From: Azolla caroliniana
Lineage: Eukaryota > Plantae > Polypodiophyta
NCBI GenBank assembly: GCA_043228905.1
Contig: JBHGNT010000008.1
Span: forward strand, 5,580,001 to 5,644,000
Direction of reading: 5' to 3'
DNA: 64,000 nucleotides
Shown: in pieces, positions 3,667-52,170 of the stretch
Layout of the letters: every line of letters starts with the position of its first letter
How positions within the stretch are numbered: the first letter of the stretch is position 1
Made by a program: the position numbers and the translations under genes
The notes under the pieces: model-generated
Database searches by the model: none
Seen by the model: the letters and a program-made list of their open reading frames with translations, nothing else
Told to the model about the DNA's origin: nothing

Positions 3667-3876
3667 TCAGTAAATTTTTTTTTGGGTTATTTGTTTTCTG
3701 TGTTTACGAATTGGGATTAAAAAGCTCGCTCTGTTTTGCTTTTCTGCAGGTTTCACACCTGAGGAGGAATTGGGCGCGCGGCTGTTCCAATTGCGCTTGC
3801 GATGGTTGATGAACCAATTATTGATCTGTCGCATCTCCAGCCCTGTCTCATCCATCATTCTCTTCTTCTCATCTTC
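3667..3876 (-). CDS. KNOX2: Class II KNOX homeobox gene, exon 5 (homeodomain helices 2-3 and C-terminus)
   Basis: AG acceptor at 3878-3877; reads [32 protein letters not shown]...IY*. A further small 3' intron after SSG cannot be excluded. Confidence 0.85.
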
Positions 3877-9808: not shown

Positions 9809-9937
9809 CGTTGGATAAGGCCATTTTGAGTGTGCATTCCACCACTTCTTTAGAACTGTGACATCTCCGGGAAGTTTCCCAGCGAGCCGCTTCCTAATGA
9901 TCTCATCTCTTATCGCAACAATGCTTTCTCGATATCT
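9809..9937 (-). CDS. KNOX2: Class II KNOX exon 4 (end of ELK, homeodomain helix 1, TALE PYP loop)
   Basis: AG..GT bounded, 129 nt, phase 0/0; [43 protein letters not shown]. The intron inside ELK and the AGKLPGD/HSKWPYP motifs are class II hallmarks. Confidence 0.93.
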
Positions 9938-11097: not shown

Positions 11098-11266
11098 TGG
11101 GTTTAGGGGGTTTAGGGTTTTTTTAGGGGGTTTAGGGCTTTTTAGGGGTTTAGGGTGTTTAGGGTTTTTTAGGGATTAGGGATTAGGGATTAGGGTTTAG
11201 GGATTAGGGATTAGGGATTAGGGATTAGGGATTAGAGGGATTAGGGATTAGAGGGATTAGGGATTA
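11098..11266 (+). repeat. Interstitial telomere-like array (GGGTTTA / GGGATTA) in KNOX intron 1
   Basis: About 20 heptamer-like units grading from TTTAGGG to ATTAGGG, ending ~23 bp from the exon 1 donor. Preceded by a 26-bp duplication at 11043-11094. Confidence 0.9.
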
Positions 11267-11289
11267 AGGTTGATGCAAATCGGGCTCAC

Positions 11290-11402
11290 CATGAATTCGT
11301 CGATGTTTTCCTTGGGGGAGCTTCGGATTAGGTGCGGGGAGGAGAGGAGCTTGTTGTTGGTGTTGTTGGGCGGGATGCCGGACATGGGGATGGAGGAGCT
11401 TG

Positions 11403-11440
<38 letters not shown>

Positions 11441-11918
11441 GAGGAGGTGGTGGTGGTGGTGTCATGGTGGTGCTGATGGTGATGGTGGTGGTGGTGGTGG
11501 TGGTCATCGTCCTTACTGAGCATGAGGTACTTGATGGCGACACTGTGGGTGTTGGCGAGCTGGTCCTCGAGGGCGCGCACCTGCTCAGGCGGGAGGCCGA
11601 CGCTGAGGCATTGGACGTGCGCGCGTAGGAGGTGCTCGAAGAGCGGGTGCGAGACCATGTCCGCCTTCAGCTTGGCCGACAATCGGAGCTCATCGATAAC
11701 ATGAAGGAATTCATGTCCGGGCGAGGAGGAGGAGGAGGAGCCGCCCAGGCCCGGGCCCCCGCCCCCGCCATTGTGGCCACTCATATTTCCACCAAAATTA
11801 GGGTTGTAATTGTGATGAATGTTTAGGGTTGCTGTAGCAGCCCCATATTGCATGGATTCGGGCGCATTTAGGGTTATGTTACTGCTACTGCTACTGCTAC
11901 TGTGCGCATTCTGTAGAT

Positions 11919-11949
<31 letters not shown>

Positions 11950-12057
11950 GTTATAGATTGAAGCAAAATTGCTGCTGTTCTCCTCTAATCTGTTGTTGTT
12001 ATTGCTCTGCTGATGCAGCGCTGAGGAGCTTGGAAAGAATGGTCGCTCGTGAGCCAT
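11290..12057 (-). CDS. KNOX2: Class II KNOX exon 1 (low-complexity N-terminus, KNOX1 subdomain)
   Basis: ATG at 12057; KLKADMVSHPLFEHLLRAHVQCLSVGLPPEQ (KNOX1); ends IDEFM|GTGAG donor at the conserved KNOX intron position. Five exons sum to 1404 nt, in frame. Confidence 0.9.
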
Positions 12058-12917
12058 TTCTTTCTCTCTCTCTCTCTCTCTTTTCTTTCTTTCTTTTTTA
12101 AATCTTTCCGTTTAAATTTTGCTTTTCTTTTTATTTCTTTTAATCTTTCTCCTCCTTTCTTTTGCTTTTCTCTTTTAGATTTCTGTTTTCTTTTTGGGTT
12201 TTCTGATTATTTCGGGGGCGTGGATTTAGTATACAGTATATAGGGTCGATTCTCTTCCACGATGATCATGAAGTGGCCCCCTGCGGCGGATTGGATCTGC
12301 ACAGACCAAAGAAAAATCAAACACTGAAGTGTAGCGATGGCGGAAAATTTTGCAGAAATTTCATGCGTGAAGTGAAAATCTGCAGAATTAATTCGACAAC
12401 TGATGATGAGGAAGCAGGGAAAAAAAGCACAGAAAATCTATGAAGTATACTAGTAGGCGATTTGAAATCAATCCCAGAGGGAGATGAAATTGAGCCAAAA
12501 GATTCAGAGGACTGATTATTAAGGTTAAACTATCTGGAATTCAGATGGTACCTTGCAGTAGGGTTGCGCTTAAATATTTAGTTAAAGATTTGAGTTTAGG
12601 GTTAATTAGGGTTTAGCTCAGGACTAGCAGTGTTAAAAAAAAAATGATAGCTGGTTATTAGGGTATGAGGTCACAACCAAGCTATAAAAACCAAAAGGTG
12701 AATGGATTTTGGAGATATGGTTACTGTAGCAGATTGAGTATGCAGGAGGGGGGGGTAAGGGTGGTTATAATCATAGCCAAAAAAAAAAAAGGCATGGAAA
12801 ATCAGGGGGTTAGGGCTAGGGTTTTAGCAAAAATACCAACAGGACCGTGGAAGCTCTGTCAAATTCCAATGGGGTTGGGTAGGGCAGGCTAATAATGGAG
12901 GTTCAGCTCACCACTCC

Positions 12918-24854: not shown

Positions 24855-26099
24855 TGTCATGAAAGGGAATAAGGTAATGTTCTAATAGATGTAGTACGGT
24901 AATAGGGAAGAGAATGTTCTAATAGATGTGGTTAGGTTATATGTATGTTATAATTGTTGTAGTCTTTGGAATCACATAATGTCGTGACTTGAGAGTAGGA
25001 GAGAGAGAAAGAAGATTGGTGTTGAACCAAATGAGTTCGTATGAATTAGTATACACCTATTTATAGGTCCTTATGGAGTATTGTAGAATGTTCTAGAGTA
25101 TTTTAGATATTTTAGATATTTAGGATAATCATGGATTATTCTAGAATGTTCTAGAATGGTTTAGAATACTCGAAATATCTTATAATAATTAATAATATAA
25201 TTACTATAATTATATATTATATATCTTTGTATGTGTTATCATAATGGCTAAGAGGTTGTGGGTTTGTCTCCTTCTAAGCCAAAATGTATGTAATCATGAC
25301 ATTATCCCCCCTTTTCAACGACGAGTTCCACAAGTCGTAAGACAAGACTTCAAACTTCGCTTATGGGGATATTTGGTGTGAAAAGTAGCAACCATAGTAG
25401 AGGTGTTAGCAAGATTCTGTGTAGGCTCCCATGTTCAATCGTTAGGTGTATAATTTAACCAGTCAACCAAATAATATAGTTTGTTGTGGACGATCTTGGA
25501 GTCAAGAACAACAACTTCATATTCGGATCCATATGAAACTTCAACTAGAGGTGGGGAGGGAGATGTAACACGACCCGGAAGAGAGCTTGTTGTGTATGAC
25601 TCCAAAAGTGAAACATGGAAGACCGGGTGAAGATGCATATGAGGAGGTTAGATCAAGTTGAAATGCCACATCATTGATCTTACCAAATATCGCATATGGG
25701 CCAAAACACTGATAATCCAGTTTATAGCAAGTTCTCGTGGTTTTAATGTTACCTTGTAAGAGCCATACTCGATCAACCACTTGAAACTTAGTCGATGAAT
25801 CACATCGATGATGATCGACAACCTTCTTGTGAGAGTTTTGAGCATCACATAAATTGTGCGAAAGGATAACCTGAAATTCTTGGAGTCGGGTGAGTTGATC
25901 TTCAATAGCTGGGTTTGTCGGGAGTTTTGGATGTTCAAGCATTGTCCAACGACGATGGTACCCAATGCTTGCGAAAAATGGTTAATATCCAATAGAAGAA
26001 TGTTCAGAGTTGTTGTAAGCAAATTCTGCCAAATGTAGGAGATTGACCCAATCATCTTGTTGATAGTTGATAAAACAACAAAGATATTGCTCCAATGTC
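24855..26099 (-). mobile_element. Old Tcn1-like chromovirus, 3' part (3' LTR 24855-25301, PPT, chromodomain, integrase C-terminus); host of the nest
   Basis: TGTCA..TGACA LTR; PPT at 25302-25315; YEVVVLDSKIVHNKLYYLVDW chromodomain; frameshifted homologue of the 43735-47292 Pol. Confidence 0.85.
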
Positions 26100-27532
26100 T
26101 GGTTTGTAGAACAGATATGAGCGGAAGAACGTGTGAGGACCTGTTAGTTTGTGAACAACAAACAACACAAACATGCAACACAAGAAGAAACAGTAGATCG
26201 ATAGAGATTGGAGCTTCAATGGATGTTCTTGTTATTTTGTAACTCTCTCTCTAAAAGACTCAAGATACAAACTTTTAGAGCTTATATACTAAGCCCTAAC
26301 TATTTGGACGTGTTCACACTTATGGATACTGTTGAGCGGCAAGCTCAACTGGAGCCGGATCGACTGGATAAGCCTGAGCCAGTGAGCAAGACAGATCGGT
26401 AAGCCGGTGAGCAACCGAGCCGACAAGCAACAGAGCCGGTGAGCTGGGGAGTCGGTTAGCCGGATCCAATCGGTAACCGGAAGCCTAGTATTAGTTTAGA
26501 CTACTAGGCAGTTATAGTCTCGTAGTAAGTGTCAGATGCTCGTGTGAGCATTGAAGTACGCGGTACTTCTGTCAGTCCCACGAGGACTTGTATAAATAGT
26601 GCTACTGAGCATAGTTGTAAGTGACACAGAGAGTGTGTTTTATATTGTTTTGAATATAACTTTTACGTTCTGCTCTCTCTCTCTCTCTCTGCCTCTCCCG
26701 TGTACTCTGTGTATTCTCTGCTTTCTCTATTTTCTAACGCTTCCACAAGTAATTGTTTACATGGTATCAGAGCGCGAGGGTTGAGAACCTCTACATCCGA
26801 CAAACGCTTGAGAGCAAACCCTAACAAGTCGTAAGAACAACAGACAGAGAAGTGATGGATAGAGGAATGGCTAGATGGCTCCCTATGAAGAAACTCGACA
26901 GATCCAACTACGCATCTTGGTCATACAAGATGCACCAGTACCTGCTTGCGCATGGCTACTGGAGTTTTGTCGAAGGAGCCAACGAAACAACACCTGATGC
27001 GGCATATAAGGATTTCCTAGTGTGGGAACAATCAACAAGCAGAGTGATGTACTGCTTCGCATCCAGTGTCGGAGACCAGCTGCTGAGCCACATTCGGGAT
27101 GCCAAGACGCCGAAGGAGGCTTGGGGAAACCTGAAGAAGGTTTTCGCCGCGAGCACTACAACCCGGAAGCTGCAACTCCGACAGGAGTTAAGCAATGTCC
27201 GATAGAAGGACATGTCGGTGGCGGATTACACGGCCCGGATCAAAGAGATCTGTACTCGCTTGCCTCTATCAACGTTACCGTAGAGGAAGACGAGATGGTA
27301 CAGGTTTGTCTTGGGGGCTTGGCGTCTAAGTTCAGAGCGTTCTGAACGGTGGTATGTACAAGGGAGAATACACCGTCATTTTTCGACTTACAATCGATGC
27401 TCCTTGTAGAGGAGAACCACGCCGGTGCGTCAACTAGCGCACCCATTGATAGCTGGATGCTGTACACGGAAGCGGATCGGTCCCGTGGGCGTGGTGGACG
27501 AGGCGGGTCGGCACACAATGGAGGCGGCCGGC

Positions 27533-30223: not shown

Positions 30224-33200
30224 TGTTGAGAAGCAAGCTCAACATGGTATGTGATGCTTATGAGAAATAAGCTATAGTAGCTATTTAGCTACTAGTGAAC
30301 AAAAAGGTAAAACAGCTATTTAGCTAGTGACAGCTAATTAGCTAGTGAACAACTATTTAGCGACTGATAGCTAATTAGCTACTGGCAGCTAATTAGCTGC
30401 ATGTGTAATAACTTATGACTTAGGTAAAAGTAAGTGAGAGTGAATAGGAAGTAAGTAGTAAGAAAAAACAGAGAATAGTGAGTAGAGAACTCTGAGAGAG
30501 TGTGAGAGACCAGAAGACTGACGAGAGCAAGTTGAGCTCTACATGTAGTAGAAGAAAACCATTTTGCTACTATAGAGGTAAGTCCCCTTTCCTTTCTCTG
30601 TCTGTTTAGAGCACGCTAACGATCCAGCACACTACGATCCGCCGCGCACATAAGAAGAGCTCGAGTGCCTTCTTCACGTTTTCTTAACATGGTATCAGAG
30701 CAGAGTTGCTCATAAAGAAGAGTACAAAAGTGCATAGATCTGAGAAAGGTATTTCTCTGTTTGCTGATCTGAATCAGAAAGTTACTTGTTGAAGTAATTG
30801 TAACAGAAAACCTAGTTTGGAAGAGATAATGGCTGCAGAGAATGCGGGCCAAATAGTTACAGAGAAACTAGATAAAAACAATTTCCCGGCGTGGAAATTT
30901 AGAATGACAAATTTCCTAATGGGGAAAGGATACTGGGATTACATTGAAGGAGACCTAGAAGAGGCTCCGGAGATCCCAGAAGAAAATGCCACAGCAGCAC
31001 AGATTAAAGCATTCAAAGATTGGAATCAAGGGGCAAGGAAGGTAATGCATTGGCTCTCACTTAGCATCTCAGATTCGATGCTTGGGCACATACAGGATGC
31101 TATGCTCCCAAAAGAAGCTTGGGACAGTTTGGTAAAACTGTTTGCAGTAAACACAAAAGCTAGAAAGCTACAGTTGAAGACTGAGCTAAATACCTTAGAA
31201 AAAGGTAAGATGTCAATAAATGAGTATGCCCTAAAAATCAAGAGCATATGTGAATCACTTGCTTCTATCAATGTAAAGATAGAAGATGATGATAAGGTAG
31301 AAATATGCTTGAGAGGCTTGGGACCCCAATACAAAAGCTTTAAAACCTCTATGCTTACAAGGGATAGTATCCCAAGTTTCTCAGATCTGGTTTCAATGCT
31401 TGTAGTAGAAGAAAGGAATCAGATGGATGATGTAAATAAAGGAAATCTTGAGAATGAGGGGCAAGCCCTATATAATAGTGCCGGAAGAGGCCGAGGAAGA
31501 GGCCATGGAAGATTTGGCTAAGCAAGAACCAACAATAATGGTTATCAAGGAAGAGGACAACAAACCATTAGAGGAAGAAACAACAACAGAGGCAGGGGGA
31601 GCAACCAAGGTAGAGGTAAGCAAACATATGTAAATGATGATGGCTGTTGGTATTGTGGAAAACCAGGCCACACACAGGCTGAATGTTAGAAGAAGCAAAA
31701 TGATGAGCAAAGAGGAAAGAGACAGCAGAATAACTATGCCCAAACTAGTGAAGATTGTGAAAAAGATGGTGCATTTGTGGTACAACATGAGATAGCAGCA
31801 GTGGCTGAAAGCTCACAGAAATGTAATGAAGAGTTTACATGGTATGTAGACTCGGGGGCATCTAACCATATGACTGGACATGCAAATTGGTTTGAGAGTT
31901 TAAGAGAACCAGAGGTTCCTGGTTATGTACAAACAGGTGATGACACAACTCACCAAATAAAACATGTTGGAGATATCCCATTGTGGGAAGAAAGAGGAAA
32001 AACCAAGTATATGTTGGATGTGATGCATGTTCCAAATCTTGCTAAGAATCTGATTTCTGTTGGACAGATAGTAGAGCAAGGTATGCAAGTAAAGTTTAAG
32101 CAAAGTGGATGCTATATAGAAAAGAATGGGAAGCTCATTGCAAAAGGGAAGAGACAAGGAAGAATGTTTATCTTGGATGTAGAAATGCCCAAACAGATTT
32201 CAGCCATGTTTGCAAATGGAACGAGTGTAATCTCAGATGTGGAAATGTGGCATAAAAGGATTGGCCATATAAGTATGCAAACATTAAAGAATATGTTGAG
32301 AAAAGATGCAGTGGCTGGACTGCCAAACTTGAAAAAGTGTGAAATGGGAAAGGTATGTGAAGCATGTCAATATGGTAAGCAAAACAGGTTGCCATTCCCT
32401 CATGAAAGACATGTAAGCAAAAATCTGTTGGATTTGGTACATACAGATGTATGGGGACCAACAAAGAATGCATCTATTGGTGGATGCAGATTTTATGTTA
32501 CATTTATTGATGATTGTTCACGGAAGACATGGGTGTACTTCATGAAGGAGAAAAGTGAAGTATTTGACTGTTTTCGTAAGTTTAAATGCATGGTAGAAAA
32601 GCAGGCTGGTACTAGGATAAAATGTTTGAGATCTGATGGAGGAGGAGAGTATTTCTCCAATGAATTTTCTGATTTTTTGCGTAATCAGGGAATAAGAAGA
32701 CAGTTCACATGCCGATATACTCCACAGCAAAATGGAGTTGCTGAGAGGAAAAACAGAACTTTGGTGAACATAGCAAGGGCAATGATGACTGAGAAGAACA
32801 TGCCATTATACTATTGGGCAGAAGCTGTAAATACAGCAAATTACATTTTAAATAGATGTATTACATCAGGAGTACATGAGGCAACTCCTGAAGAGTGTTT
32901 TTATGGCAGGAAGCCTAGCTTACAACACTTGAAAGTGTTTGGATGCCTTGCATATGTACATGTGCCTGCAGAAGTAAGAAGTAAGTTGGATCCAAAAGCA
33001 GAAAAATGTATCCTTGTTGGATATTCAGAAGAACAAAAAGGGTACAGATGTTATAACCCTGTGACTAAAAAGATTGTGACAAGTCGAGATGTGATATTTG
33101 ATGAGTTGGCTAGTTGGTACAACCTAAAACAGAATCTAGAGACTGATGAAGACTGTCAAAATGAAGACAAAGACAGATCAGAAAATGTAGAAGACTGTCA

Positions 33201-35660
33201 CAGAGATGGAGACAAGGTTGGACAGCAAAGTCCAACATCAACAGAATGTTCTGGACCATCAAAAAGCTCAGATGGTAAATCTGATTCAAATTCATGGAGT
33301 GGAAAAACTGGACAGAAAAAATCTGATGACAAAAAAGGAAAACAGAAAATGCCAGAGTATGAAATCCTGGATGACCTATCAAAAAACATGGAAGATGAAG
33401 ATTCAGATATGTCTTTGGATGATTTCCTTGGAATACAGGAAATGAAAATCCTTGGTATGGAAAAGGCAATAAAGAATGCAAATCAGAAACTGAGAAGATC
33501 AGATAGAGAGAAAAAGACTGTGGAAAGATTTGGGTATGATACATATATGGCTATGCACTATGCATATATGTCTAAGGTGGTACAGATCCCTGACCCAAAC
33601 AGCTTTGAAGAAGCAAAATCTGAGAAGAAATGGATGGATGCAATGCAAGAAGAGATTGATGCATTGGCTGAGAACAAAACGTGGGATTTAGTGAAGTTAC
33701 CAAAAGAGAAAAATGTGGTAGGCTGCAAATGGGTCTACAAGACAAAGCATGACTCCAATGGAAATGTAAGTAGACATAAAGCAAGATTGGTTGCAAAAGG
33801 ATATGCTCAGATGCAAGGGATTGATTATGATGAGACTTTTGCACCGGTTGCAAAGATGGCAACCCTGAGAACACTACTTGCTGTAGGAGCAGCCAGAAAA
33901 TGGATTTTGCATCACATGGATGTAAAAAATGCTTTTTTACATGGTAACTTGGAAGAAGAAGTGTATATGAGTCAACCACCAGGTTTTGAAGATAAGAAAC
34001 AACCTGATTATGTATGTAAGCTGAAAAAAGCTCTCTATGGACTGAAACAGGCACCAAGAGCATGGCACAGAGAACTTTCAGATTCTCTGAAAAATCTTGG
34101 TTTCAAAATGTCAAAAGCTGATCCTTCTTTGTATGTAAAAAGTGAAAATGATTGCATTGTTATTATTCTGATTTATGTAGATGATTTGATTATTGGAGGA
34201 GATTCCGTGGATGAAATAAGAAAGTTGAAAAAAAATCTGGAAATGCAGTTTCATATGAAAGATTTGGGAGATCTGAGATATTTTCTTGGTATTGAAATCA
34301 TCAAATCTGAAAGTGGTATATGTATGTTGCAAAAACAGTATGCAACAACTATGTTGAAAAAGTATGGTATGCTTGGATGCAAACCTATTGCTGTACCACT
34401 TGATAAAAACTGCAAGTTGAGGGCTGATTTGGGAGCCAAGATAGAAGATGTAAACATGTACAGGTCTATGGTGGGCAACCTTATTTATTTGACTATAACA
34501 AGACCTGATTTGAGCTATGCTGTTGGATTAGTCAGCCAATTTATGCAACAGCCAACAAAGCCACATTTGGACTGCATTAGAAGAATTCTGAGGTATGTAA
34601 AAGCTACTCAGAACTATGGATTGTTTTACAGGGCTGATTTGGACATAAATCTGGAAGGATATACAGATGCTGATTGGGCTGGAAGCCAAACAGACAGGAG
34701 ATCCACAAGTGGATATATCTTTACATTGGGAAGTGCAGGTATTTCATGGAGTAGCAAGAAACAGGCTACTGTTGCATTGTCTAGTACTGAAGCTGAGTAC
34801 AGAGGAGCTGCCATAACCACTTGTGAAGAGGTATGGATTAGAAGATTGCTTGCTAATTTGGGAGAGTATATAGACGGTACTGTCACAATCTGGTGTGACA
34901 ACATGAGCAGCATTCAACTTGCAAAGAACCCTGTGTTCCATGCAAGAACAAAGCACATTGAAGTGCATTATCACTTTGTTAGAGAAAAAGTGATTGAAGG
35001 AGAAGTTGATCTGGTGTATGTGAATACAAATCAGCAGGTTGCTGATATTCTCACAAAGGGATTGAGTGTGGAAAAGCATACACAGTTTCGGAACATGATG
35101 GGAGTTGTAAACATTGATGAGATGGCTAAAAAGCAAAATGGAAAAGAAGATTGAAGAGAACCTCAAGCAAGAATAAGTTGAGCTTGAGGGGGAGTGTTGA
35201 GAAGCAAGCTCAACATGGTATGTGATGCTTATGAGAAATAAGCTATAGTAGCTATTTAGCTACTAGTGAACAAAAAGGTAAAACAACTATTTAGCTAGTG
35301 ACAGCTAATTAGCTAGTGAACAGCTATTTAGCGACTGACAGCTAATTAGCTATTGGTAGCTAATTAGCTGCATGTGTAATAACTTATGACTTAGGTAAAA
35401 GTAAGTGAGAGTGAATTGGAAGTAAGTAGTAAGAAAAAACAGAGAATAGTGAGTAGAGAACTCTGAGAGAGTGTGAGAGACCAGAAGACTGACGAGAGCA
35501 AGTTGAGCTCTACATGTAATAGAAGAAAACCATTTTGCTACTATAGAGGTAAGTCCCCTTTCCTTTCTCTGTCTGTTTAGAGCACGCTAACGATCCAGCA
35601 CACTACGATCCGCCGCGCACATAAGAAGAGCTCGAGTGCCTTCTTCACGTTTTCTTAACA
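30224..35660 (+). mobile_element. Copia element B (young, full-length), inserted in the RT of element A
   Basis: TSD cggta at 30219-30223 and 35661-35665; 466-bp LTRs 30224-30689 and 35195-35660 (about 7 differences by eye); PBS at 30690; PPT before 35195. Confidence 0.96.
30829..35154 (+). pseudogene. Element B gag-pol, one reading frame broken by two stops (TAA 31519, TAG 31687)
   Basis: Gag, CCHC knuckle, PR (WYVDSGAS), GAG-pre, IN (HTDVWGP, SDGGGEY), RT (YVDD) and RH (TDADW) are all in the same frame. Confidence 0.92.
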
Positions 35661-41600: not shown

Positions 41601-42441
41601 AACCTCGATTGGAGGGCAATGGCTTTCACTTCTTCTTCAAAGTTAATCCCTTGGGAGGAGAGTTCAGAAAACACCCAACTGAAGGTGTTGATGTGGGAGG
41701 TGGTTGGATCGGTTTCTCTCATCTTCATGTTGAACAATTGTCTGATCAGTATCAATTTCGAAGATGAGGACTTCTTTTCCTACACAGCCTGCAACTTCTC
41801 CCATAACGAGAAGGCTATTGTCTCCTTGTCCATGCTGAAGTAGAAATTTTTGGCCAGATGCATTCAAATGGTGGAGCGCAAGATTTCGTCTATGGATCTC
41901 CAGTCTTCGGCTGTCATCGAAGCAGGTTTTTCACTGACATGTCGAATGGATTTGACTTGTCTTCTGATGATCAACACATCTTGCATCATCTCTTTCTACA
42001 AGGCAAAGTTTTTGCCATCGAACTTTCAGATTTCAATTATTGTATCAGATGTTGAAGCCATGTTCCTTTTGAGAGAGAGATTTTACTGACCTGGTCTTTT
42101 CTTTTAGCCGGATAGCTTCTCCTCTTAGCTTTTCTGCTATTCATCGTTGCTGAACCACAAGTCGCTTTGATACCAATTGTAGAACAAATATGCATGGAAG
42201 AACGTGTGAGGACTTGTTAATTTGTGAACAACAAACAACATAGATATGCATCACACGAAGAAACGGTAGATCAATAGAGATTGGAGATTCAATGGAAGTT
42301 CTTGTTATTTTGTAACTCTCTCTCTCTACAAGACTCAATATACAGAGGTTTAGAGCTTATATACTAAGCCCTAACTATTTGGACGTGTTCACACTTGTGC
42401 ATACAAAGTGGAAGGAGTCGGCCTTTTATGCCAACATGGTT

Positions 42442-42646
42442 GGTGCACTCACTTTGCCCGTTAATTTCTAGATGGTAGCTAGAAGAGAGGTTGCAAGAAG
42501 TATGTAAGAGTTTGAACATGTGCCTCCAAAATTTTGAGATCAACTAGGGACCCTAATCACTAATAATTTCATCTGGAAGACTATGGTGCCGAAATACCTC
42601 TAACATGAGTAAATCAATTGTCTCTTTGCTAGTAATGGCCTTCTTA
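42442..42646 (-). mobile_element. Continuation of the old chromovirus integrase
   Basis: Joins 26099 across the tggtt TSD; colinear with 44520-44750 of the young element. Confidence 0.8.
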
Positions 42647-43402
42647 TGACGGGAACTACAACGCTCCTTATGCGCAACGCTCGGCCACAACCGAACTTAG
42701 AATCATACACAGAAAACAGTGAAAGAATGCACGACACGAAGAAGAGAAGAGTACACAGGATGTTTACGTGGAAAACCCAAACTAAGGGAAAAACCACGGC
42801 AGCCCACAGGCTGCAAACTATCACTATGTTAGAATGTACAACAGTGAGTTCACGGAGGCAACGACCTCGTGCTCACGATCTTCGCCACAGGCGGCAGTTA
42901 CAATTGAGGCAACGACCTCTTCCTCTCTCTCACTCTCTCTGTACACAGTTACACGCTCTGATCTCGCGCAGACAAGAATAACAACAACAACCTCAAAAGG
43001 TTTGCCCTAAGTCATATTTATACTAATATGACTTTTCGGCTATTTACAAATACAGCCATGATGGACTCTCAGAAACATATTTACGAATATGTCTCTTCAT
43101 TCGGAGAGCACTTCTCACCGGGTCTGCACCATCCGGCTCTCCGTAGCCGGGTACTCCTCATCCGGTTCTCACCGGGTCTGCACCATCCGGCTCTCCAAAG
43201 CTGGGTACTCCTCATCCGGTTCTCACCGGGTCTGCACCATCCGGCTCTCCGTAGCCAGGTACTCCTCATTGTCAGGAACTCTATTAAGGCAGAGAAGGAA
43301 TTAGTACTAAAAGAAGGATTAGTACTATTGTTGGGGAATAGTACTAAGACAGAGAAGGATTAGTACTATGAGAGGTGTCGAACTTTGAGAGAAGGAATGA
43401 GT

Positions 43403-43452
<50 letters not shown>

Positions 43453-43734
43453 TGATGCGAAAGATATATGTATTATATGACGGAAGATATACAACAGTAG
43501 TTAGAAGGCTTAAGACTGGCGTTGAACCGATTTGGTTCGAACTAATGCCTTGCGCCTCCTTTTATAGTGTCTTCAGGAATACTCCTGAAGTTTCTAGAAT
43601 GTTCCAGAGAAATCTGGAATATACATCAATTTCCTAATAAAACCTAAATGAAAATAATATCCTTCAAATTACAACTCATAACCTAATGGTAAAGTCTCGA
43701 CCCGTGTAACAAAAGGTTATGGGTTCGAGTCTAG

Positions 43735-46700
43735 TTATGACACTATCCCCCCTTTAAAACGACGAGTTTCACGAGTCGTTTTGGATTGAGGACCCGGTTT
43801 CTCGGGATATCGTCGATGGAAGTCTTCTAGAAGAGCACGAGCATTGGTCACATTCTCGATCGGTTCCCAAGTACGCTCGCTGGGACTATATCCTAGCCAA
43901 TCGACTAGATAGTAGAGCTTGTTGCGAACAATCTTGGAATCGAGGATGGCAGCGACCTCATACTCAGGTCCATCTTCGAGCTCGATAGGAGGTGGAGGTT
44001 GTATAGTACGTCCTGGGATAGTGCTCTCGTGATAGGGTTCGAGGAGAGAACTATGAAACACCGGGTGTATCCGAAGTTGCGGAGGTAGCTCGAGACGAAA
44101 AGCGACATCATTAATCTTCCCGATAATACGGAAAGGACCTAATCGTCGATAATCCAACTTCTCACATGGGCGAGTAGTCTTGATGTGTCGTCGTAGCAGC
44201 CACACCCGATCTCCAATGTTAAAACTGGATGGAAGTCGATGACGATCTGCGTAGTCCTTGTGTGATTGTTGAGCTTGCTGGAGTTGAGTAGATAAATCCG
44301 CTTGTATCTTGCGTAACCGCTCCAAACGATCCTCCGCGCAAGGATTTGTGGACACTTCTGGGGTTTCAAGGACACACCACCGGGGATGATATCCCGTATA
44401 AGCGTAGAATGGCGTGACTTTAGTCGATGCGTGGATAGCGTTATTATAGGCAAATTCGGCGAACGGAAGAATATCTGCCCAGTCATTCTGATGATAGTTG
44501 AGAAAGCACCGCAGATACTGCTCCAGTGTTTGATTTGTTCGTTCGGCTTGACCGTCGGTTTGTGGGTGGTAGCCGGAGGAGAGGTTACAAGTGACCTTCA
44601 GCATTTTAAAAAGGTGCTTCCAGAATTTTGACACAAACTGGGGTCCACGATCGCTGATGATATTATCAGGGAGTCCATGATGCCGACATACTTCCCGCAT
44701 GACAATTTCGGCGGTGTCTTCACTAGATATTTCTTTAGTACATGGTAAGAAATGAGCCATCTTCGTATATCGATCCACCACTGTGAGAATCGCACTGAAT
44801 CCCTTAGAGACTGGAAGATCTGTAATGAAGTCAAGAGCAATGGATTGCCATGGCTTGCTTGGAATTGGTAATGGTTCTAATAAACCATATGGATGATGTC
44901 TTGGCATTTTCGCTCTGCAGCATGTATCGCAAGTCCGAACAAAATCTTCGACAAATTGTCGCATACGGGGCCACCAGAATGATCGTTGTACTAAATCTAA
45001 TGTTTTAGTACTACCAAAATGTCCTGCTGTATATGTGTCATGGCAGTTTTGTACTACTCGAAGGCGGCAAGAACCATTAGGAACATACAAAAGTTCTTTA
45101 AAGAAGAGTAATCCATCACAGTATTTGAATTGCCGATAATCCGTACCTGGTGATTGTGATTGTGAACATGACGCTCGAGAGGGGTCAATTTGTGCTAGTA
45201 TAGCTTGGGCGAAAGCGTCAGTCTTCAAGTCCTCACGTATAGTATTGGTAATGTCGGAATCCACGGGCATGTCAAAGATCTGTGCTGCTTGCAGTCGTGC
45301 TGGACCCAAGATTACTTGCTTCTGGTTATCGAAAGCTGGCTCACCGGGACGTGGTGTTAGATACGAACGCCGTGATAATGCATCTGCTTTCCCTTGGTGC
45401 TTCCCCGGACGATATGTAATTTTGAAGTCGAAGCGTGTGAGGAAATGGGCCCACCGAGCTTGACGTCGATTCAGTACACGAGCATCTTGAAAGTAGGCAA
45501 GGTTCTTGTGGTCACTGAATACAGTGACCTGATGAGGAGATCCCTCCAAGAAATGCCTCCATTGCATAAAAGAATCAACTATTGCTAATAGCTCTTTATC
45601 ATGAATTTCGTAGTTGATTTCGGCGGCGTCAAACTTACGGGAGTGGAAAGCCACAGGATGTAGCTTCTCGTCGTTACCCTGTTGTGACAGAATGCTCCCC
45701 AATGCGAAATCCGATGCATCAGCTTCGATAATGAATGGTTTTTCCGGATCCACATGACCTAAAATTGGAGCTGATGTAAACACCTTCTTAAGACTCTCGA
45801 AAGCCATGTCCGTCTCTTTAGACCAAATGAATGATTGTCCCTTCCTGGTGAGCTGTGTGAGAGGCAGCACAATTTTTGAGTAATTTTGTATGAACTTCCG
45901 GTAGAAATTTGCAAAGCCTAGGAAGCATTGCACATCCCGCACCGAACGCGGAGTGTGCCATTCTATCACCGTTTTGACCTTGGCTGGGTCCATAGATATG
46001 CCTTCTGAGGAGATGACATAGCCGAGAAACTCCACTTGGTTGCACCCGAAACTACATTTCTCTAACTTTGCATACAGACCATGTTCTCGAAGTCGTTTTA
46101 GTACTAATAGTACATGAGAATCATGTTCTTCTTGGGTCTTTGAATAAACCAGTAGATCATCCAAATAGATGATCAAAAAATCATCCAAGAGGTCTCGAAA
46201 TATATCATTCGCCATGTGCTGGAAGACTGCCGGCGCATTAGTGAGTCCGAACGGCATGACCGTATACTCGAAGTGCCCATATCTGGTGCGAAACGCGGTC
46301 TTCCATTCATCTCCTGGTCGGATCCGTACGAGGTTATAGGCTCCTCGTAAGTCGATCTTCGTGAAGAACCTGGCACCGTTGATCCGTTCTAAAAGACTTG
46401 AGATAAGGGGAAGAGCATACCTATTTCTTACTGTGACCTTATTCAAGCCACGGTAATCTACAACGAGTCGAAGCGAGCCATCTTTTTTCTTGACGAAGAA
46501 AATGGGTGCGCCGGCTGGAGATTTCGAATGCCGAATGAAACCGTTCTCCAAATTCTCCTCTATATAGGCTCGAAGGACTTCTAGCTCGGTTGGTGACAAA
46601 TTGTAGATCGGCCCCCATGGCGGCTCTTTTCCCGGTTGTAAGTCGATGGCGCAGTCGTACGGCCGATGATGAGGAAGTGTGTTGGCTTGTACTTTATCGA

Positions 46701-47331
46701 ACACATCAGCATACTGACGATACTTCTCGGGAAGTTGAACGGTGGACTCCTCTTTGGTGATGCTGGAGGGTTGTACTGATATTGCAAAGAGAAACATTTC
46801 CTCCTTGCGCCCTTCCTCACGCAACTGACGTAGCGAAATGGTTGCAACCTTCTGGGTAGATCCTTGGGTTTGTCGCAACCGGATTTCCCTTGTCCTCCAA
46901 TCTATGTCTGGGTCATGTAACTCGAACCATGGTAATCCTAAAACTATGGGATGTTCTGGAATACTAATAATATTAAATGATACTACACATGTTAAGTTAT
47001 CCAGGACAATATTAACGGGTTCCGACTCTTCTATGATATTACCAGAAGCAATGGGACGACCATCAATGACTACTACTGAGGCTGGACATGGGAGCTTTCT
47101 GAGAGATATCTGATGAGCTCGGGCAAAATTCCTATCCATGAAGCAAGAATTAGCTCCGGAATCTAGAAGGGCTAAGGTATGTACTGGAGGGGTACTTTTA
47201 GTACTAACTGCTACTTGGACTACGAACACATCACTAACTTGCTTAGAGGGAATGGAACCACTAATGGGCTGCACAGATCTAGGGCTGTCCAACCAAACGG
47301 CTCCTATTTTGGCTGGACTTAGTCGTTTAAC
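43735..47331 (-). CDS. pol: Chromovirus Pol (PR-RT-RH-IN-chromodomain), -1 frame relative to gag
   Basis: LLDSGA, YLDD, EADASD, HHCC/DDE integrase, YEVAAILDS...WEP chromodomain; no AUG before PR; stop lies inside the 3' LTR. Confidence 0.93.
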   Translation of the reverse strand, partial: VKRLSPAKIGAVWLDSPRSVQPISGSIPSKQVSDVFVVQVAVSTKSTPPVHTLALLDSGANSCFMDRNFARAHQISLRKLPCPASVVVIDGRPIASGNIIEESEPVNIVLDNLTCVVSFNIISIPEHPIVLGLPWFELHDPDIDWRTREIRLRQTQGSTQKVATISLRQLREEGRKEEMFLFAISVQPSSITKEESTVQLPEKYRQYADVFDKVQANTLPHHRPYDCAIDLQPGKEPPWGPIYNLSPTELEVLRAYIEENLENGFIRHSKSPAGAPIFFVKKKDGSLRLVVDYRGLNKVTVRNRYALPLISSLLERINGARFFTKIDLRGAYNLVRIRPGDEWKTAFRTRYGHFEYTVMPFGLTNAPAVFQHMANDIFRDLLDDFLIIYLDDLLVYSKTQEEHDSHVLLVLKRLREHGLYAKLEKCSFGCNQVEFLGYVISSEGISMDPAKVKTVIEWHTPRSVRDVQCFLGFANFYRKFIQNYSKIVLPLTQLTRKGQSFIWSKETDMAFESLKKVFTSAPILGHVDPEKPFIIEADASDFALGSILSQQGNDEKLHPVAFHSRKFDAAEINYEIHDKELLAIVDSFMQWRHFLEGSPHQVTVFSDHKNLAYFQDARVLNRRQARWAHFLTRFDFKITYRPGKHQGKADALSRRSYLTPRPGEPAFDNQKQVILGPARLQAAQIFDMPVDSDITNTIREDLKTDAFAQAILAQIDPSRASCSQSQSPGTDYRQFKYCDGLLFFKELLYVPNGSCRLRVVQNCHDTYTAGHFGSTKTLDLVQRSFWWPRMRQFVEDFVRTCDTCCRAKMPRHHPYGLLEPLPIPSKPWQSIALDFITDLPVSKGFSAILTVVDRYTKMAHFLPCTKEISSEDTAEIVMREVCRHHGLPDNIISDRGPQFVSKFWKHLFKMLKVTCNLSSGYHPQTDGQAERTNQTLEQYLRCFLNYHQNDWADILPFAEFAYNNAIHASTKVTPFYAYTGYHPRWCVLETPEVSTNPCAEDRLERLRKIQADLSTQLQQAQQSHKDYADRHRLPSSFNIGDRVWLLRRHIKTTRPCEKLDYRRLGPFRIIGKINDVAFRLELPPQLRIHPVFHSSLLEPYHESTIPGRTIQPPPPIELEDGPEYEVAAILDSKIVRNKLYYLVDWLGYSPSERTWEPIENVTNARALLEDFHRRYPEKPGPQSKTTRETRRFKGGIVS

Positions 47332-48488
47332 TCTTCTTCTAATTGGCTAAGGACATCAAATTTGTTTGCGAGATTCGGACTATTAGTACTATTAGGACTA
47401 TTATGACTATGAGGATTATCAGAGATTCCTAGTGACATAGACTCGGGTTTAGTATAGTCAGAACTAACAATGACTTGGTTTACCTGCCTTCTTGGTCTAT
47501 GGGGACAGTTTATCGCGATATGCCCTGGTCCACCGCAATAAAGGCATAATCGGTTTGTTCGGCGTCGTTGCTTTTCCTCCTCCGATAGCGGCCCACGACG
47601 ACGTGTAGTGTCAATTTCCATTGGAGTTGGAGTACTTACTGGAGGCGCATTATGTGACTCCCTTTGAAAAGGTTTCGCTACCATTGAGGCATAGGTAGGC
47701 TCGGATCTTGCCCTCGGCATCTGAAATTGTCGTTCCGAACGTCGCTCGAAGAGGCGGTTGTCACATCTGACCGCTCGACTGATTGCTTCTGTTAATGATT
47801 TTGGCTCTTCAGGGAAAGTCAAGAGTAAATCCTTGACATCGTTGCGTAGACCATAGCGGAACTGCTCCATCAATGCTTGATCATCCCAGGGGATATCGGC
47901 GGCGAGTAGGCGGAAATCTGCAGCATATGCGGAGGCTGGACGGTCACCTTGGCGTAATCGCCGGATTTTGTTGATTGCAGTCCTTATGCTGTCAGTATCT
48001 CCAAAACATGCTTTAAACTCACTTATGAATTCTTCAAAATTATTTAGTACTGGAGATTCCTTTTCTAGTAGCGGAGCGAACCATGCTAATGCTGAGCCAT
48101 TTAACAACGTGCCTACTAAACCCACTCGTGATGCATCGGTGGGATATCGGGACGGATGCATTTGAATAACTAACCGTACCTGGTTAAGAAACCCTCTAAA
48201 CTGCGATCGCGTTCCATCGAACTTCGTGGGAAGGCCAATCTTGGGTTCTTTATGAATCCCTTGTGCTCCGTGCCCTTGTTGTTGCATTGCTACGATGGTT
48301 GCTTCGAGTTGTTGCACGCGTAACGCAAGTTCCCCATGCTGTTGTTGCGTTTGCTGCTTTTCTAAGGAAATTTGCTGAAGATCCCCCAACAAGCGTTGAT
48401 TTTCTTGTTCCAAAGCATGAAACTTCTCTTTCAAGCATTGAAATTCCGAGAAAACGGATTGATACTCTTCAGCGCTAACGGTGGCCAT
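47319..48488 (-). CDS. gag: Chromovirus Gag (PEG10/Rtl1-like capsid, CCHC knuckle)
   Basis: 389-aa ORF; KFDGTRSQFRGFLNQ, LRQG, QFRYGL, PTPMEID, CLYCGGPGHIAINC. Confidence 0.93.
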   Translation of the reverse strand: MATVSAEEYQSVFSEFQCLKEKFHALEQENQRLLGDLQQISLEKQQTQQQHGELALRVQQLEATIVAMQQQGHGAQGIHKEPKIGLPTKFDGTRSQFRGFLNQVRLVIQMHPSRYPTDASRVGLVGTLLNGSALAWFAPLLEKESPVLNNFEEFISEFKACFGDTDSIRTAINKIRRLRQGDRPASAYAADFRLLAADIPWDDQALMEQFRYGLRNDVKDLLLTFPEEPKSLTEAISRAVRCDNRLFERRSERQFQMPRARSEPTYASMVAKPFQRESHNAPPVSTPTPMEIDTTRRRGPLSEEEKQRRRTNRLCLYCGGPGHIAINCPHRPRRQVNQVIVSSDYTKPESMSLGISDNPHSHNSPNSTNSPNLANKFDVLSQLEEELND

Positions 48489-48709
48489 GGGATGAAGGAA
48501 AAGGGAAATAAGAGACTAGTAGGAAAGGAGAGAGACAGAAGGAAGAGGGAGACTAGTAGGAAAAATCGGTTCAAACTGTCAGGAACTCTATTAAGGCAGA
48601 GAAGGAATTAGTACTAAAAGAAGGATTAGTACTATTGTTGGGGAATAGTACTAAGACAGAGAAGGATTAGTACTATGAGAGGTGTCGAACTTTGAGAGAA
48701 GGAATGAGT

Positions 48710-48749
<40 letters not shown>

Positions 48750-51700
48750 TGATGCGAAAGATATATGTATTATATGACGGAAGATATACAACAGTAGTTA
48801 GAAGGCTTAAGACTGGCGTTGAACCGATTTGGTTCGAACTAATGCCTTGCGCCTCCTTTTATAGTGTCTTCAGGAATACTCTTGAAGTTTCTAGAATGTT
48901 CCAGAGAAATCTGGAATATACATCAATTTCCTAATAAAACCTAAATGAAAATAATATCCTTCAAATTACAACTCATAACCTAATGGTAAAGTCTCGACCC
49001 GTGTAACAAAAGGTTATGGGTTCGAGTCTAGTTATGACACTCATCCGGTTCTCACCGGGTCTGCACCATCCGGCCCTCCGTAGCCGGGTACTCCTCATCC
49101 GGTTCTCACCGGGTCTGCACCATCCGGCTCTCCGTAGCCGGGTACTCGTCATACGGTTTATCAACACTGTTCTTCTCCCTTCCCATCCGGAGGGACCTGT
49201 CTCCCAACAAACTCCCCCTTCACTCTGGCATGAGGTGTCTTACTAGTCCGATCCTCTTCCGGCATGCATCCAGCTTGTCGGGTATCAACACTTCAGTCAG
49301 CATATCTGACCCGTTCTCGGCCGTGTGGATCTTCGTCAGTGCGAACTCCTGGTCATCTACTCTTTCCCGGATCCAGTGATACCTTCGTTGGATATGCTTC
49401 GTCCGGAAATGGTAGGCCGCATTCTTAGCAAGGTGGATGGCACTTTGACTGTCGCAATAGAGCCGGTATTCATCTTGTCGGATACCGAGCTCTCCGATGA
49501 AGTCCTTCATCCATAACATTTCCTTGCCGGCTTCCACAGCCGCCAAGTACTCCGCCTCCGTGGTTGACAACGCAACCGTCTTCTGCAGCCTCGACTGCCA
49601 CGAAACAACTCCCCCTGCATATGTCATTACATACCCGGATGTGGACCAGCTGGTATCCACATCAGCCGACATGTCTGAATCGGTGAAACCGTCAAGTTGA
49701 GATTTTCCGGAGCCGAATCGGAGACACATATTTGAAGTGCCCTTCAAATACCGGAGTATCCATTTGACCGCGTTCCAGTGCTCCTTGCCGAGATTGCTCA
49801 TAAACCGGCTCACCACTCTGACTGCGTATCCTATATCCGGTCGGGTACACACCACTGTGTACATCAAGCTCCTGACGGCAGAGGCATATGGAATCTTCAT
49901 CATATCCGCCTTCTCTGCTTTCGTCTTCAGGCTTTGCTTACCGGATAGCTTGCAGTTTGCCGGAAGTGTCGATCCGACCGGTTTCGCATCTGACATGTTG
50001 AACCGGTGAAGCACCTTTGTCACGTACTTCTCTTGTGATAGCCATAATTGCATCACTGACCGATTCCGGATAATATGCATCCCCAGCATCTGTCTTGCCA
50101 GACCCAAGTCTTTCATTGAGAAGGTCCGGTTGAGAGCCTTCTTCAGCATCCGTATTTTGACTTGGTCCCGTCCGACGATCAACATGTCATCCACGTACAG
50201 AAGGAGTATCAGGAAGTCGCCTCCTTCAAACTTCTTCACAAACACGCAGTGATCGGCCTACGTCTTGTGGTACCCTTGATCGGTCATGAAGGAATCGAAC
50301 TTCCGGTACCATTGTCGGGGAGCCTGCTTTAGTCCGTACAGGCTCTTCTTCAGCCGGCATACCAGGTGCTCCTTCCCTTTCTCCACAAATCCCTCCGGTT
50401 GCTGCATGTAGATCTCCTCTTTGAGGTCGCCGTGAAGGAATGCCGTCTTCACGTCCAACTGTTCTACCTCGAGGTCCATGCTTGCCGCTATACTCAGCAC
50501 CGTCCGGATGGAGGTCATCTTTACTACCGGGGCAAATATCTCGTCAAAGTCCACGCCCTTTTTCTGCTGGAAACCCCTTCACCACGATCCTGGCTTTGTA
50601 TCTCGGGGGGTTGCCGGCATCTCCCGGTTTCAACTTGTACACCCACTTGTTTCGGAGTGCCCGCTTTCCTTTCAGCAACTCCACCAATTCGTACGTATGG
50701 TTCTCATGCAGGGAATCCATCTCATCCTGCATGGCATTTAACCATTTGCGGCTGTGGGTGTCATCCTTCGCTTCTTCGAAGCTTTCCGGCTCCCCCTCAT
50801 TGGTCAGCAGAACATGCTCTGCAACCGGAAATCTCCGGGGCACCCTTCTCTCTCTGAGAGGATATCTCCGTCTTCTGGGTTCGGTAACCGGCTCCTCCAT
50901 TTTCTCTTCATCCGAATCTGATTCAGGGTCTTGGCCGGTTCCGGTTTCAGCTTCCTCTACTTCTTCTTCTGCCGGTTCGGTATCCTCACCGTAACCGGCT
51001 GGTTCCTCGAGTGCTAACCGGTCTCTTGCCGGTTGGGTCTGCTCATCGTAGAATTGATCATTACCGGTCGACTCGGAGTTCATTATCTTCTTCTCCGACT
51101 CCCAGTCGGCGAGCGTCTTGTTCTCCATGAAGATAATATCTCGACTCTGGAATACCTTCTTGTCGACCAGGTCCCACACTTGGTAGCCGAACTCATCGGC
51201 GCCGTAACCGAGGAATATGCATGGCCGGGTCTTTGGATCCAACTTTCCTCTCCGGTCCTTAGCTACATGCACGTACGCGAGACACCCGAATACCTTCAGA
51301 TGCCGGTAGGATACTTCCTTACCGGTCCAAACTCTCTGTGGCGTGTCTCCGTCCAAGGGTACTGAGGGTGATCTGTTTATCACATATGTCGCCGTCGACA
51401 GTGCCTCAGCCCAAAACTTCTTGGGTAGTTTTGCATGCGCCAACATACTCCGGACCCTCTCCATTATGGTCCGGTTCATCCTCTCGGCCAGCTCATTTAG
51501 TTCCGGCATCTTCGGCACGGTAAATTCGAGCCGGATTCCCTTCAAGTGACAGTACTCCTCGAACTGCCCCCGGTATTCACCTCCGTTATCTGCTCGAGCC
51601 GCCTTCAGTTTCCGGCCGGTTTCTCTTTCCACTCTCGCGTGGAGCTCTTTGAAGACGGATAACACCTGATCCTTCGTCTTCAACGGTGTGGCCCACAACT

Positions 51701-51753
51701 TCCGGTTGTGGTCATCTATGAATGTCACGAAGTACTGTGATCTTGCATGTGAC

Positions 51754-52170
51754 TTGTAGATGCCGAAATGTCCAGCCATCAGCGTGTCATGACATTGTTG
51801 CAAGACTTGTAGTCGAGAAGGACCATCAGGCACATACAATAGAGTTTGTCGAAAAAGTAAACCATCATGCCAATTGAACTGGTTGTAGTCTTGACGAGGA
51901 TTTTACGATTGTGAGCAAGAAGCATGATGTGGGATAATATGGTTCAAAATGTCTTGCGGGAATTCATCAGTCTTAATATGCTCCCAAATGGAATCAAGAA
52001 GACTTGAATCTCTAGGTGTTTCTATAACATGAAATGCCATTAGTTGTAGACGATCAAGACCCTAGAGGATTTGCTTCTGACTGTCGAATGTAGACTCTCC
52101 TGGTTGAAGTTCCATATACGAACGTCGAGATAAAGCGTCTGCTTTTCCTTGTTGCATCCTAGGACGGGAT
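51754..52170 (-). mobile_element. Old chromovirus pol fragment (RH-IN junction)
   Basis: QQGKADALSRRSY and LYVPDGPSRLQVLQQCHDTLMAGHFG; homologous to 45000-45420. Confidence 0.8.

Follow-up and report, generated by a model that had tools for sequence, protein, structure and literature searches.

A candidate -1 frameshift signal, conserved among relatives, at the gag-pol junction of a Tcn1-type chromovirus from Azolla caroliniana

Analysis of 64,000 nucleotides of Azolla caroliniana DNA (contig JBHGNT010000008.1, positions 5,580,001 to 5,644,000; hereafter the window) revealed a retrotransposon whose gag and pol genes overlap in different frames, their junction carrying a slippery heptamer followed by a predicted H-type pseudoknot. 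On comparative sequence grounds, the signal is real, conserved and very probably functional. By analogy with viral and cellular systems, we consider it likely that programmed -1 frameshifting on this heptamer, stimulated by the putative pseudoknot, sets the ratio of Gag to Gag-Pol. The ORF layout, the -1 position of pol, the heptamer and its conservation are direct observations. The parts of the element are as follows (window coordinates).

43270-49039, minus strand: whole element including both LTRs
48577-49039, minus strand: 5′ LTR, 463 nt, TG...CA
48863, minus strand: TATA-like box in the 5′ LTR
48830-48819, minus strand: predicted transcription start (placed by its distance from the TATA box) and self-primer
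48563-48574, minus strand: self-priming-type primer binding site, 12 nt, exact complement of LTR 48830-48819
47319-48488, minus strand: gag, 389 aa (Pfam Retrotrans_gag, Ty3_capsid, DUF4939)
43735-47346, minus strand: pol ORF in the -1 frame, 1203 aa from stop to stop (Pfam and ORF list)
43743-43755, minus strand: polypurine tract
43270-43742, minus strand: 3′ LTR, 473 nt
43265-43269, plus strand: left copy of the 5-bp target-site duplication; the right copy, 49040-49044, is identical

The two LTRs are identical except for one substitution and a microsatellite indel of 10 nt. Such near-identity, together with the perfect 5-bp duplication, indicates a recent insertion. The order of domains (gag, then protease, reverse transcriptase, RNase H and integrase, with a C-terminal chromodomain) and the TG...CA LTRs are those of a Ty3/gypsy chromovirus. 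Pfam detects protease, reverse transcriptase, RNase H, integrase and chromodomain in pol, which also has an SH3 domain, the chromodomain being of group I; the CCHC knuckle of gag scores slightly below the Pfam cut-off. A predicted self-priming site, 2 nt inside the 5′ LTR end, takes the place of a tRNA primer site, and the complementary LTR stretch lies 26 nt past the TATA box. The group I chromodomain carries aromatic Tyr, Trp and Tyr where expected, at what we take to be the positions of the aromatic cage. The overlap of gag and pol and the length of the target-site duplication complete the picture. Judged by its sequence, then, this chromovirus is intact, inserted recently and has the features of the Tcn1 type (Tf1/sushi group), and the chromovirus identity and intactness assigned in the first-pass annotation are borne out by the Pfam domains, the two open frames, the LTRs and the duplication. 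In the available text of a survey of such elements, self-priming is given for 83% of the Tcn1 clade, overlapping ORFs for 60% (149 elements), 5-bp duplications for 100% and an aromatic-cage group I chromodomain for 95% (PMC6317226). The reverse transcriptase core shares 122 of 144 residues with Selaginella SM-Tcn1, as counted by eye. Among the 120 Pol homologues listed, the named matches are fungal, fish and algal, none being from a seed plant. Over 43735-43755 (minus strand), the pol frame crosses the polypurine tract and stops 8 bases into the 3′ LTR. The insertion site is a 54-nt tandem array, present on both flanks (43103-43269 and 49040-49206).

Other features of the window include degenerate pol-related fragments on the minus strand at 25297-26107 (54-58% identity) and 42433-42789 (43%), neither of which retains a gag-pol junction. 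In a further minus-strand segment (50547-52166), a fragment resembling Tcn1 pol, with 55% identity to residues 646-782 of pol, continues in one open frame into copia-like integrase sequence; the segment probably represents a gypsy/copia chimera formed by nesting and deletion. A copia-like element with 98% identical LTRs occupies 30224-35494 (plus strand); its gag and pol parts are split by two in-frame stops, most simply explained as mutations. A divergent KNOX homeobox gene, presumably class II-like by its motifs, has exons at 11260-12111 (KNOX1 domain), about 9790-9900 and about 3700-3870 (minus strand), with two homologues found. The KNOX1 domain marks the host as a plant, and the range reported for Tcn1 elements would make it a non-seed plant (PMC6317226, PMC2864245).

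At the junction, gag ends on the minus strand in GAG UUA AAC GAC UAA, terminating at 47319, and the heptamer lies in the gag frame two codons upstream from the stop. These features, the 6-nt spacer and the 11-bp stem with its single G-U pair agree base for base with what the first-pass annotation had described. The predicted structure begins 6 nt downstream from the heptamer, as it does in the family copies, the accepted range for -1 signals being 5-9 nt. Its components are listed below.

47325-47331, minus strand: slippery heptamer G_UUA_AAC, gag frame
47319-47324, minus strand: spacer, 6 nt, whose last bases are the gag stop codon
47308-47318, minus strand: 5′ arm of stem 1, 11 nt
47298-47307, minus strand: hairpin loop, 10 nt, made of the 3-nt loop 1 (47307-47305) and the 5′ arm of stem 2 (47304-47298)
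47287-47297, minus strand: 3′ arm of stem 1, 11 nt
47261-47286, minus strand: loop 3, 26 nt
47254-47260, minus strand: 3′ arm of stem 2

Pairing of the hairpin loop with 47260-47254, likewise proposed at the outset, is found at these positions and gives 7 bp in the window, two of them G-U. With the last of these pairs disrupted in 9 of 34 sequences, 6 bp of stem 2 remain as its conserved core. The earlier statement that pol is open in the -1 frame with no AUG before the protease also stands: the first Met of the frame is residue 70, downstream of the protease catalytic Asp at residue 62, hence a whole protease could not result from AUG initiation.

Taken alone, the window signal is modestly beyond chance, and the single-sequence fold is non-significant (z of -1.68 with a program that cannot model pseudoknots; 15 of 200 shuffles fold equally well). 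The stem 2 duplex is worth -11.2 kcal/mol, a value reached by 10 of 300 shuffles, and 7 of the 827 slippery-type heptamers in the window are followed by an 11-bp stem 5-9 nt downstream. The weight of the signal thus comes from its position at an ORF junction and from its conservation. A small hairpin over the heptamer, present in the window fold, was dropped because relatives lack it. Searching the window against Rfam returned no frameshift family at an E-value of 10, the two weak matches (E up to 10) being unrelated.

Scanning metagenomes matched 395 stretches and yielded 185 relatives, the best 80 of which were kept (79 loci). With the window included, 52 of 80 sequences reach the gag end, 50 contain the gag stop and 38 have a downstream protease match; the other 12 junctions could not be scored for frame, mainly because of contig ends. 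Pol lies in the -1 frame, in an ORF overlapping the shift site, at all 38 scorable junctions (37 loci and the window), and gag and pol share one frame in none. No AUG occurs between the start of the pol frame and the protease alignment in 35 of the 38. As 78 of the 79 loci stem from one assembly series, with many collapsed high-coverage contigs, they represent related families and not independent lineages; independent support is that of two sequences, the distant locus L075 and SM-Tcn1, described below. Among the 62 closest Gag proteins, 44 terminate in LNE, LND or SNE. The summed depth of four DNA runs, a crude measure based on contig depth, peaks over 47251-47331. No relatives were found by protein or pattern in a viral contig collection, nor by pattern in a genome contig collection.

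Conservation at synonymous positions was assessed in 26 of the 38 sequences, selected for long open frames and freed of duplicates. Background four-fold sites in gag and pol are nearly saturated (mean major-base frequency 0.54; 1 of 249 sites at 0.95 or above). All four such sites in stem 2 are invariant, and the only one in stem 1 alternates between A and G, opposite a U. Unpaired positions vary, namely the third base of loop 1 and the sequence of loop 3, whose length changes in three-nucleotide steps (26, 29 or 32 nt). The heptamer and stem 1 (47331-47287) form the best-conserved 45-nt window within 1.2 kb. Across 34 junctions, pairing is possible in 97.1% of 612 pair cells, as against 20-60% when partners are slid, and the stem 2 arm is the best downstream partner of the loop in 30 of 33. 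The family copies had also been singled out as the place to look for covariation. Here the outcome is mixed: within the family, covariation is weak, changes on both sides affecting 1 of 18 pairs (a level reached by 114 of 500 shuffles), and support takes the form of conservation; compensatory double changes do appear in L075 and SM-Tcn1. A second in-frame UAG in the hairpin loop (47304-47306, minus strand) is present in 14 of the 26 sequences and lost in 12. This is the position of the gag stop in distant relatives, which would fit an earlier stop having arisen within the spacer in the window family. In one relative (L056, 1198-1300), the junction is interrupted within stem 1 by unrelated sequence, through an insertion or an assembly chimera.

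L075 is 45% identical to the window element in Gag and 53% in Pol. Its heptamer, in frame with gag, is G_GGA_AAC, the spacer again measures 6 nt, and the -1 frame stays open for 790 codons, up to the contig end. Nine of 11 stem 1 positions pair, with two mismatches and one double change. Stem 2 has undergone three double changes (A-U to U-A, C-G to G-C and C-G to U-A), can be extended to 9 bp and outperforms 297 of 300 shuffles, the remaining 3 matching it. Its 3′ arm falls within a unit of about 39 nt, repeated about three times in frame (L075 1437-1560), which offers alternative partners with longer loops. Inspection by eye of SM-Tcn1 (nt 1539-1623; sequence from the PMC2864245 supplement) reveals G_GGA_AAC, a 6-nt spacer, a 10-nt loop, an 11/11 Watson-Crick stem 1 with two double changes relative to the window, a 7/7 Watson-Crick stem 2 with one, and a long loop of about 33 nt, near the commonest length of the window family. 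Several junction residues encoded by SM-Tcn1 differ while the pairs persist. In both L075 and SM-Tcn1 the gag stop lies inside the hairpin loop, 7 codons past the Asn codon. An Asn 7 residues from the Gag end is found in 51 of 58 distant Gags, preceded by E, G or K in 49, which suggests that the junction layout is shared over a wide clade. A scan for the peptide motif at the N-termini of the 120 listed Pol homologues gave no match (0/120), as gene callers start downstream of the motif. Not every distant relative has the signal, since 10 of these 120 are single-ORF Gag-Pol fusions, all at most 54% identical.

The 50 junctions display GUUAAAC (37), GUCAAAC (6), AUUAAAC (4), AUCAAAC (2) and GUUAAAU (1); the heptamer of the window family is invariably R_UYA_AA(C), and the canonical U_UUA_AAC is absent. 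By the classical rule X_XXY_YYZ, which admits GUU and GGU in place of XXX (PMC5644247), the window heptamer and 37 of the 50 conform, while 12 with AUU, GUC or AUC do not; these three triplets are not named as exceptions in the available part of that source. Searching the literature for GUCAAAC or AUUAAAC in a frameshift context gave no result. The first base is a purine in all 42 distinct junctions, and the Asn codon is AAC in 41 of 42, as compared with 36% in gag. A silent route to U_UUA_AAC is open in 15 of 42 (Val GUG 9, Leu CUG 3, Ile AUA 3) and used in none. These 15 junctions amount to about three or four clades, so that the lack of U_UUA_AAC among them is no more than a hint.

In the tree, the UCA variants (4 of 26 rows) fall into a single clade with support of 100/100. 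Having pol frames open for 934-1234 codons, these elements look functional. The UCA codon, found in the P site in 8 of 50 junctions, is a poor fit to tandem slippage: on G_UCA_AAC or A_UCA_AAC, re-pairing of the P-site tRNA would be barely possible. One tentative scenario, which we regard as possible but somewhat doubtful, is that plant Tcn1 elements have kept one ancient frameshift pseudoknot from Selaginella to the present host through compensatory change, and that the slippery site was detuned in the window family, one clade operating on G_UCA_AAC or A_UCA_AAC. If so, little beyond A_AAC and a long pseudoknot would suffice for a -1 shift occurring naturally in a eukaryote, and frameshift predictors would have to admit a wider set of motifs.

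As regards folding, slippage and efficiency, the model proposed here draws on viral and PEG10 precedent. Most ribosomes would terminate at the UAA and release the 389-aa Gag. A minority would be held up while UUA occupies the P site and AAC the A site, the pseudoknot resisting unwinding 6 nt ahead, and could then slip to GUU AAA and continue into pol. The product would be a Gag-Pol of about 1584 aa (388 + 1196), and Gag would remain in excess, as required for particle assembly. Speculatively, the imperfect P-site triplet, with its purine in first position, might keep efficiency low.

Rather than by a pseudoknot, the -1 shift might be driven by the 11-bp hairpin, the loop and downstream arm being kept for an RNA role of the packaging or dimerisation type. 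The hairpin is stable unaided (about -14 kcal/mol on its own), stem-loops are able to stimulate frameshifting (PMC7618472, in the part available), and, within the family, no stem 2 pair has changed on both sides and the last one is often broken. We nonetheless find this explanation unlikely, given that stem 2 pairing survives three double changes in L075 and one in SM-Tcn1, that its four-fold sites do not vary, and that the geometry matches pseudoknots with an established stimulatory role (PMC3835772). Other ways of shifting, for instance slippage of a single tRNA on A_AAC or of a polymerase, could be entertained inasmuch as A_AAC is the only part common to all variants including G_GGA_AAC, the P-site triplet being GUU, AUU, GUC, AUC or GGG. 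Against it stand the constraint on the first heptamer base, the absence of a long homopolymer and the fact that no indel at a 5% share is listed over 46900-47700 in four DNA runs; tandem slippage is preferred, and the other routes appear highly improbable.

Pol might alternatively be made from a spliced or separate transcript or by reinitiation, the junction being conserved as a protein linker. Splicing sets the Gag:Pol balance in plant Ty1/copia elements (PMC5580714) and likewise in Ogre (PMC6317226), as far as the available text of these sources goes, and at 47483, a position resembling a splice donor, 96% of the 26 sequences have GT. This GT, however, is part of a Val codon whose adjoining synonymous bases vary, the only in-frame acceptors are unconserved, and there is no conserved in-frame splice pair. 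A separate start is at odds with the rarity of AUG codons ahead of the protease alignment and with a first Met that, in the window, follows the catalytic Asp. Protein constraint does not explain frozen synonymous sites, nor pairs that distant relatives keep while swapping residues. All this renders the explanation very unlikely. Three presumed-RNA runs, yielding 13-40 short contig pieces with no junction-spanning joint listed, are uninformative on expression or splicing. There is, finally, the view that the frame break is private to a dead copy and the hairpin due to chance. Plant LTR elements do mostly consist of a single ORF, and random frameshifts are found in many copies (PMC6317226, in the part available). 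The first-pass annotation had itself named a private indel, with other copies in a single frame, as what would overturn its reading; the family copies refute this, pol being in -1 in 37 of 37 scorable relatives. Combined with LTRs one substitution apart, a perfect duplication and two open ORFs, this leaves the dead-copy view a negligible chance. Frameshifting stimulated by the predicted pseudoknot thus remains the preferred reading.

The closest known counterparts are SM-Tcn1 and the plant Tcn1 clade, which, in the available text, share the two overlapping ORFs, the group I chromodomain and the 5-bp duplication (PMC2864245, PMC6317226). The SM-Tcn1 junction matches the window element in spacer, stem and loop lengths but differs in having G_GGA_AAC and the gag stop in the hairpin loop, whereas the window family has R_UYA_AAC and a stop five codons earlier, in the spacer. 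Tf1/sushi elements of fungi and fish (sushi-ichi, MAGGY, skippy, grasshopper and Cryptococcus Tcn1) resemble it in self-priming, chromodomain and -1 pol. The mammalian genes PEG10/Edr, PNMA3, PNMA5 and Rtl3 also employ a -1 shift on a heptamer ending in A_AAC with a downstream structure; for PEG10, as anticipated in the first-pass annotation, and for PNMA3, this is a pseudoknot, with synonymous-site suppression around the signal (PMC5009743, PMC11299033). These differ in being domesticated Ty3/gypsy host genes with an experimentally tested G_GGA_AAC, and the likeness to the window signal is one of layout. The atypical G_UUA_AAC is, as the first-pass annotation stated, the EAV ORF1a/1b shift site (PMC3835772). 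Moreover, the 6-nt spacer, 11-bp stem 1 and 7-8-bp stem 2 are shared with IBV (spacer 6, stem 1 11, stem 2 7, long loop 32) and LDV (6, 11, 8), according to Table 1 of the same source. Nidoviruses are RNA viruses with no relation to this element, and convergence is the simplest account of the resemblance.

In the portions of earlier work available, a 2003 survey (Gao et al.) is cited as having seen +1 arrangements only in plant two-frame elements (Atkins et al. 2016, PMC5009743), SM-Tcn1 is annotated as two ORFs with no occurrence of the word "frameshift" (Novikova et al. 2010, PMC2864245), and the Tcn1 ORF overlap is tabulated (Neumann et al. 2019, PMC6317226 supplement 5). A preprint on S. 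osmophilus (10.1101/2022.12.06.519325) describes programmed -1 frameshifting as predominant in Tf1/sushi elements. Its Fig. 4C takes in the moss element PpatensLTR2, so that a plant Tcn1 element may already have been credited there with -1 frameshifting; no heptamer or pseudoknot is given in the part available, where "slippery" does not occur. Our literature search, whose coverage stopped short of most subscription journals and of Gao et al. 2003, found no description of a heptamer plus pseudoknot in a plant LTR element; with journal coverage so limited, the absence of an earlier description is not proven. Since the mechanism is known, the Tcn1 ORF overlap is in print and the preprint makes -1 the norm, the finding is less surprising than the first-pass annotation supposed and was to be expected for the clade. 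It reveals no new mechanism. What is apparently new is the definition, in plant elements, of a signal that comparison supports, along with a series of non-canonical heptamers.

The signal defines, to the base, a candidate -1 frameshift in a plant retrotransposon and is short enough to fit a reporter. Together with its distant relatives, the family further supplies naturally occurring alleles of the heptamer on the one pseudoknot, with G_GGA, G_UUA, A_UUA, G_UCA and A_UCA preceding AAC. For annotation, it would follow that the gag-pol break of Tcn1 elements marks intact copies and not decay.
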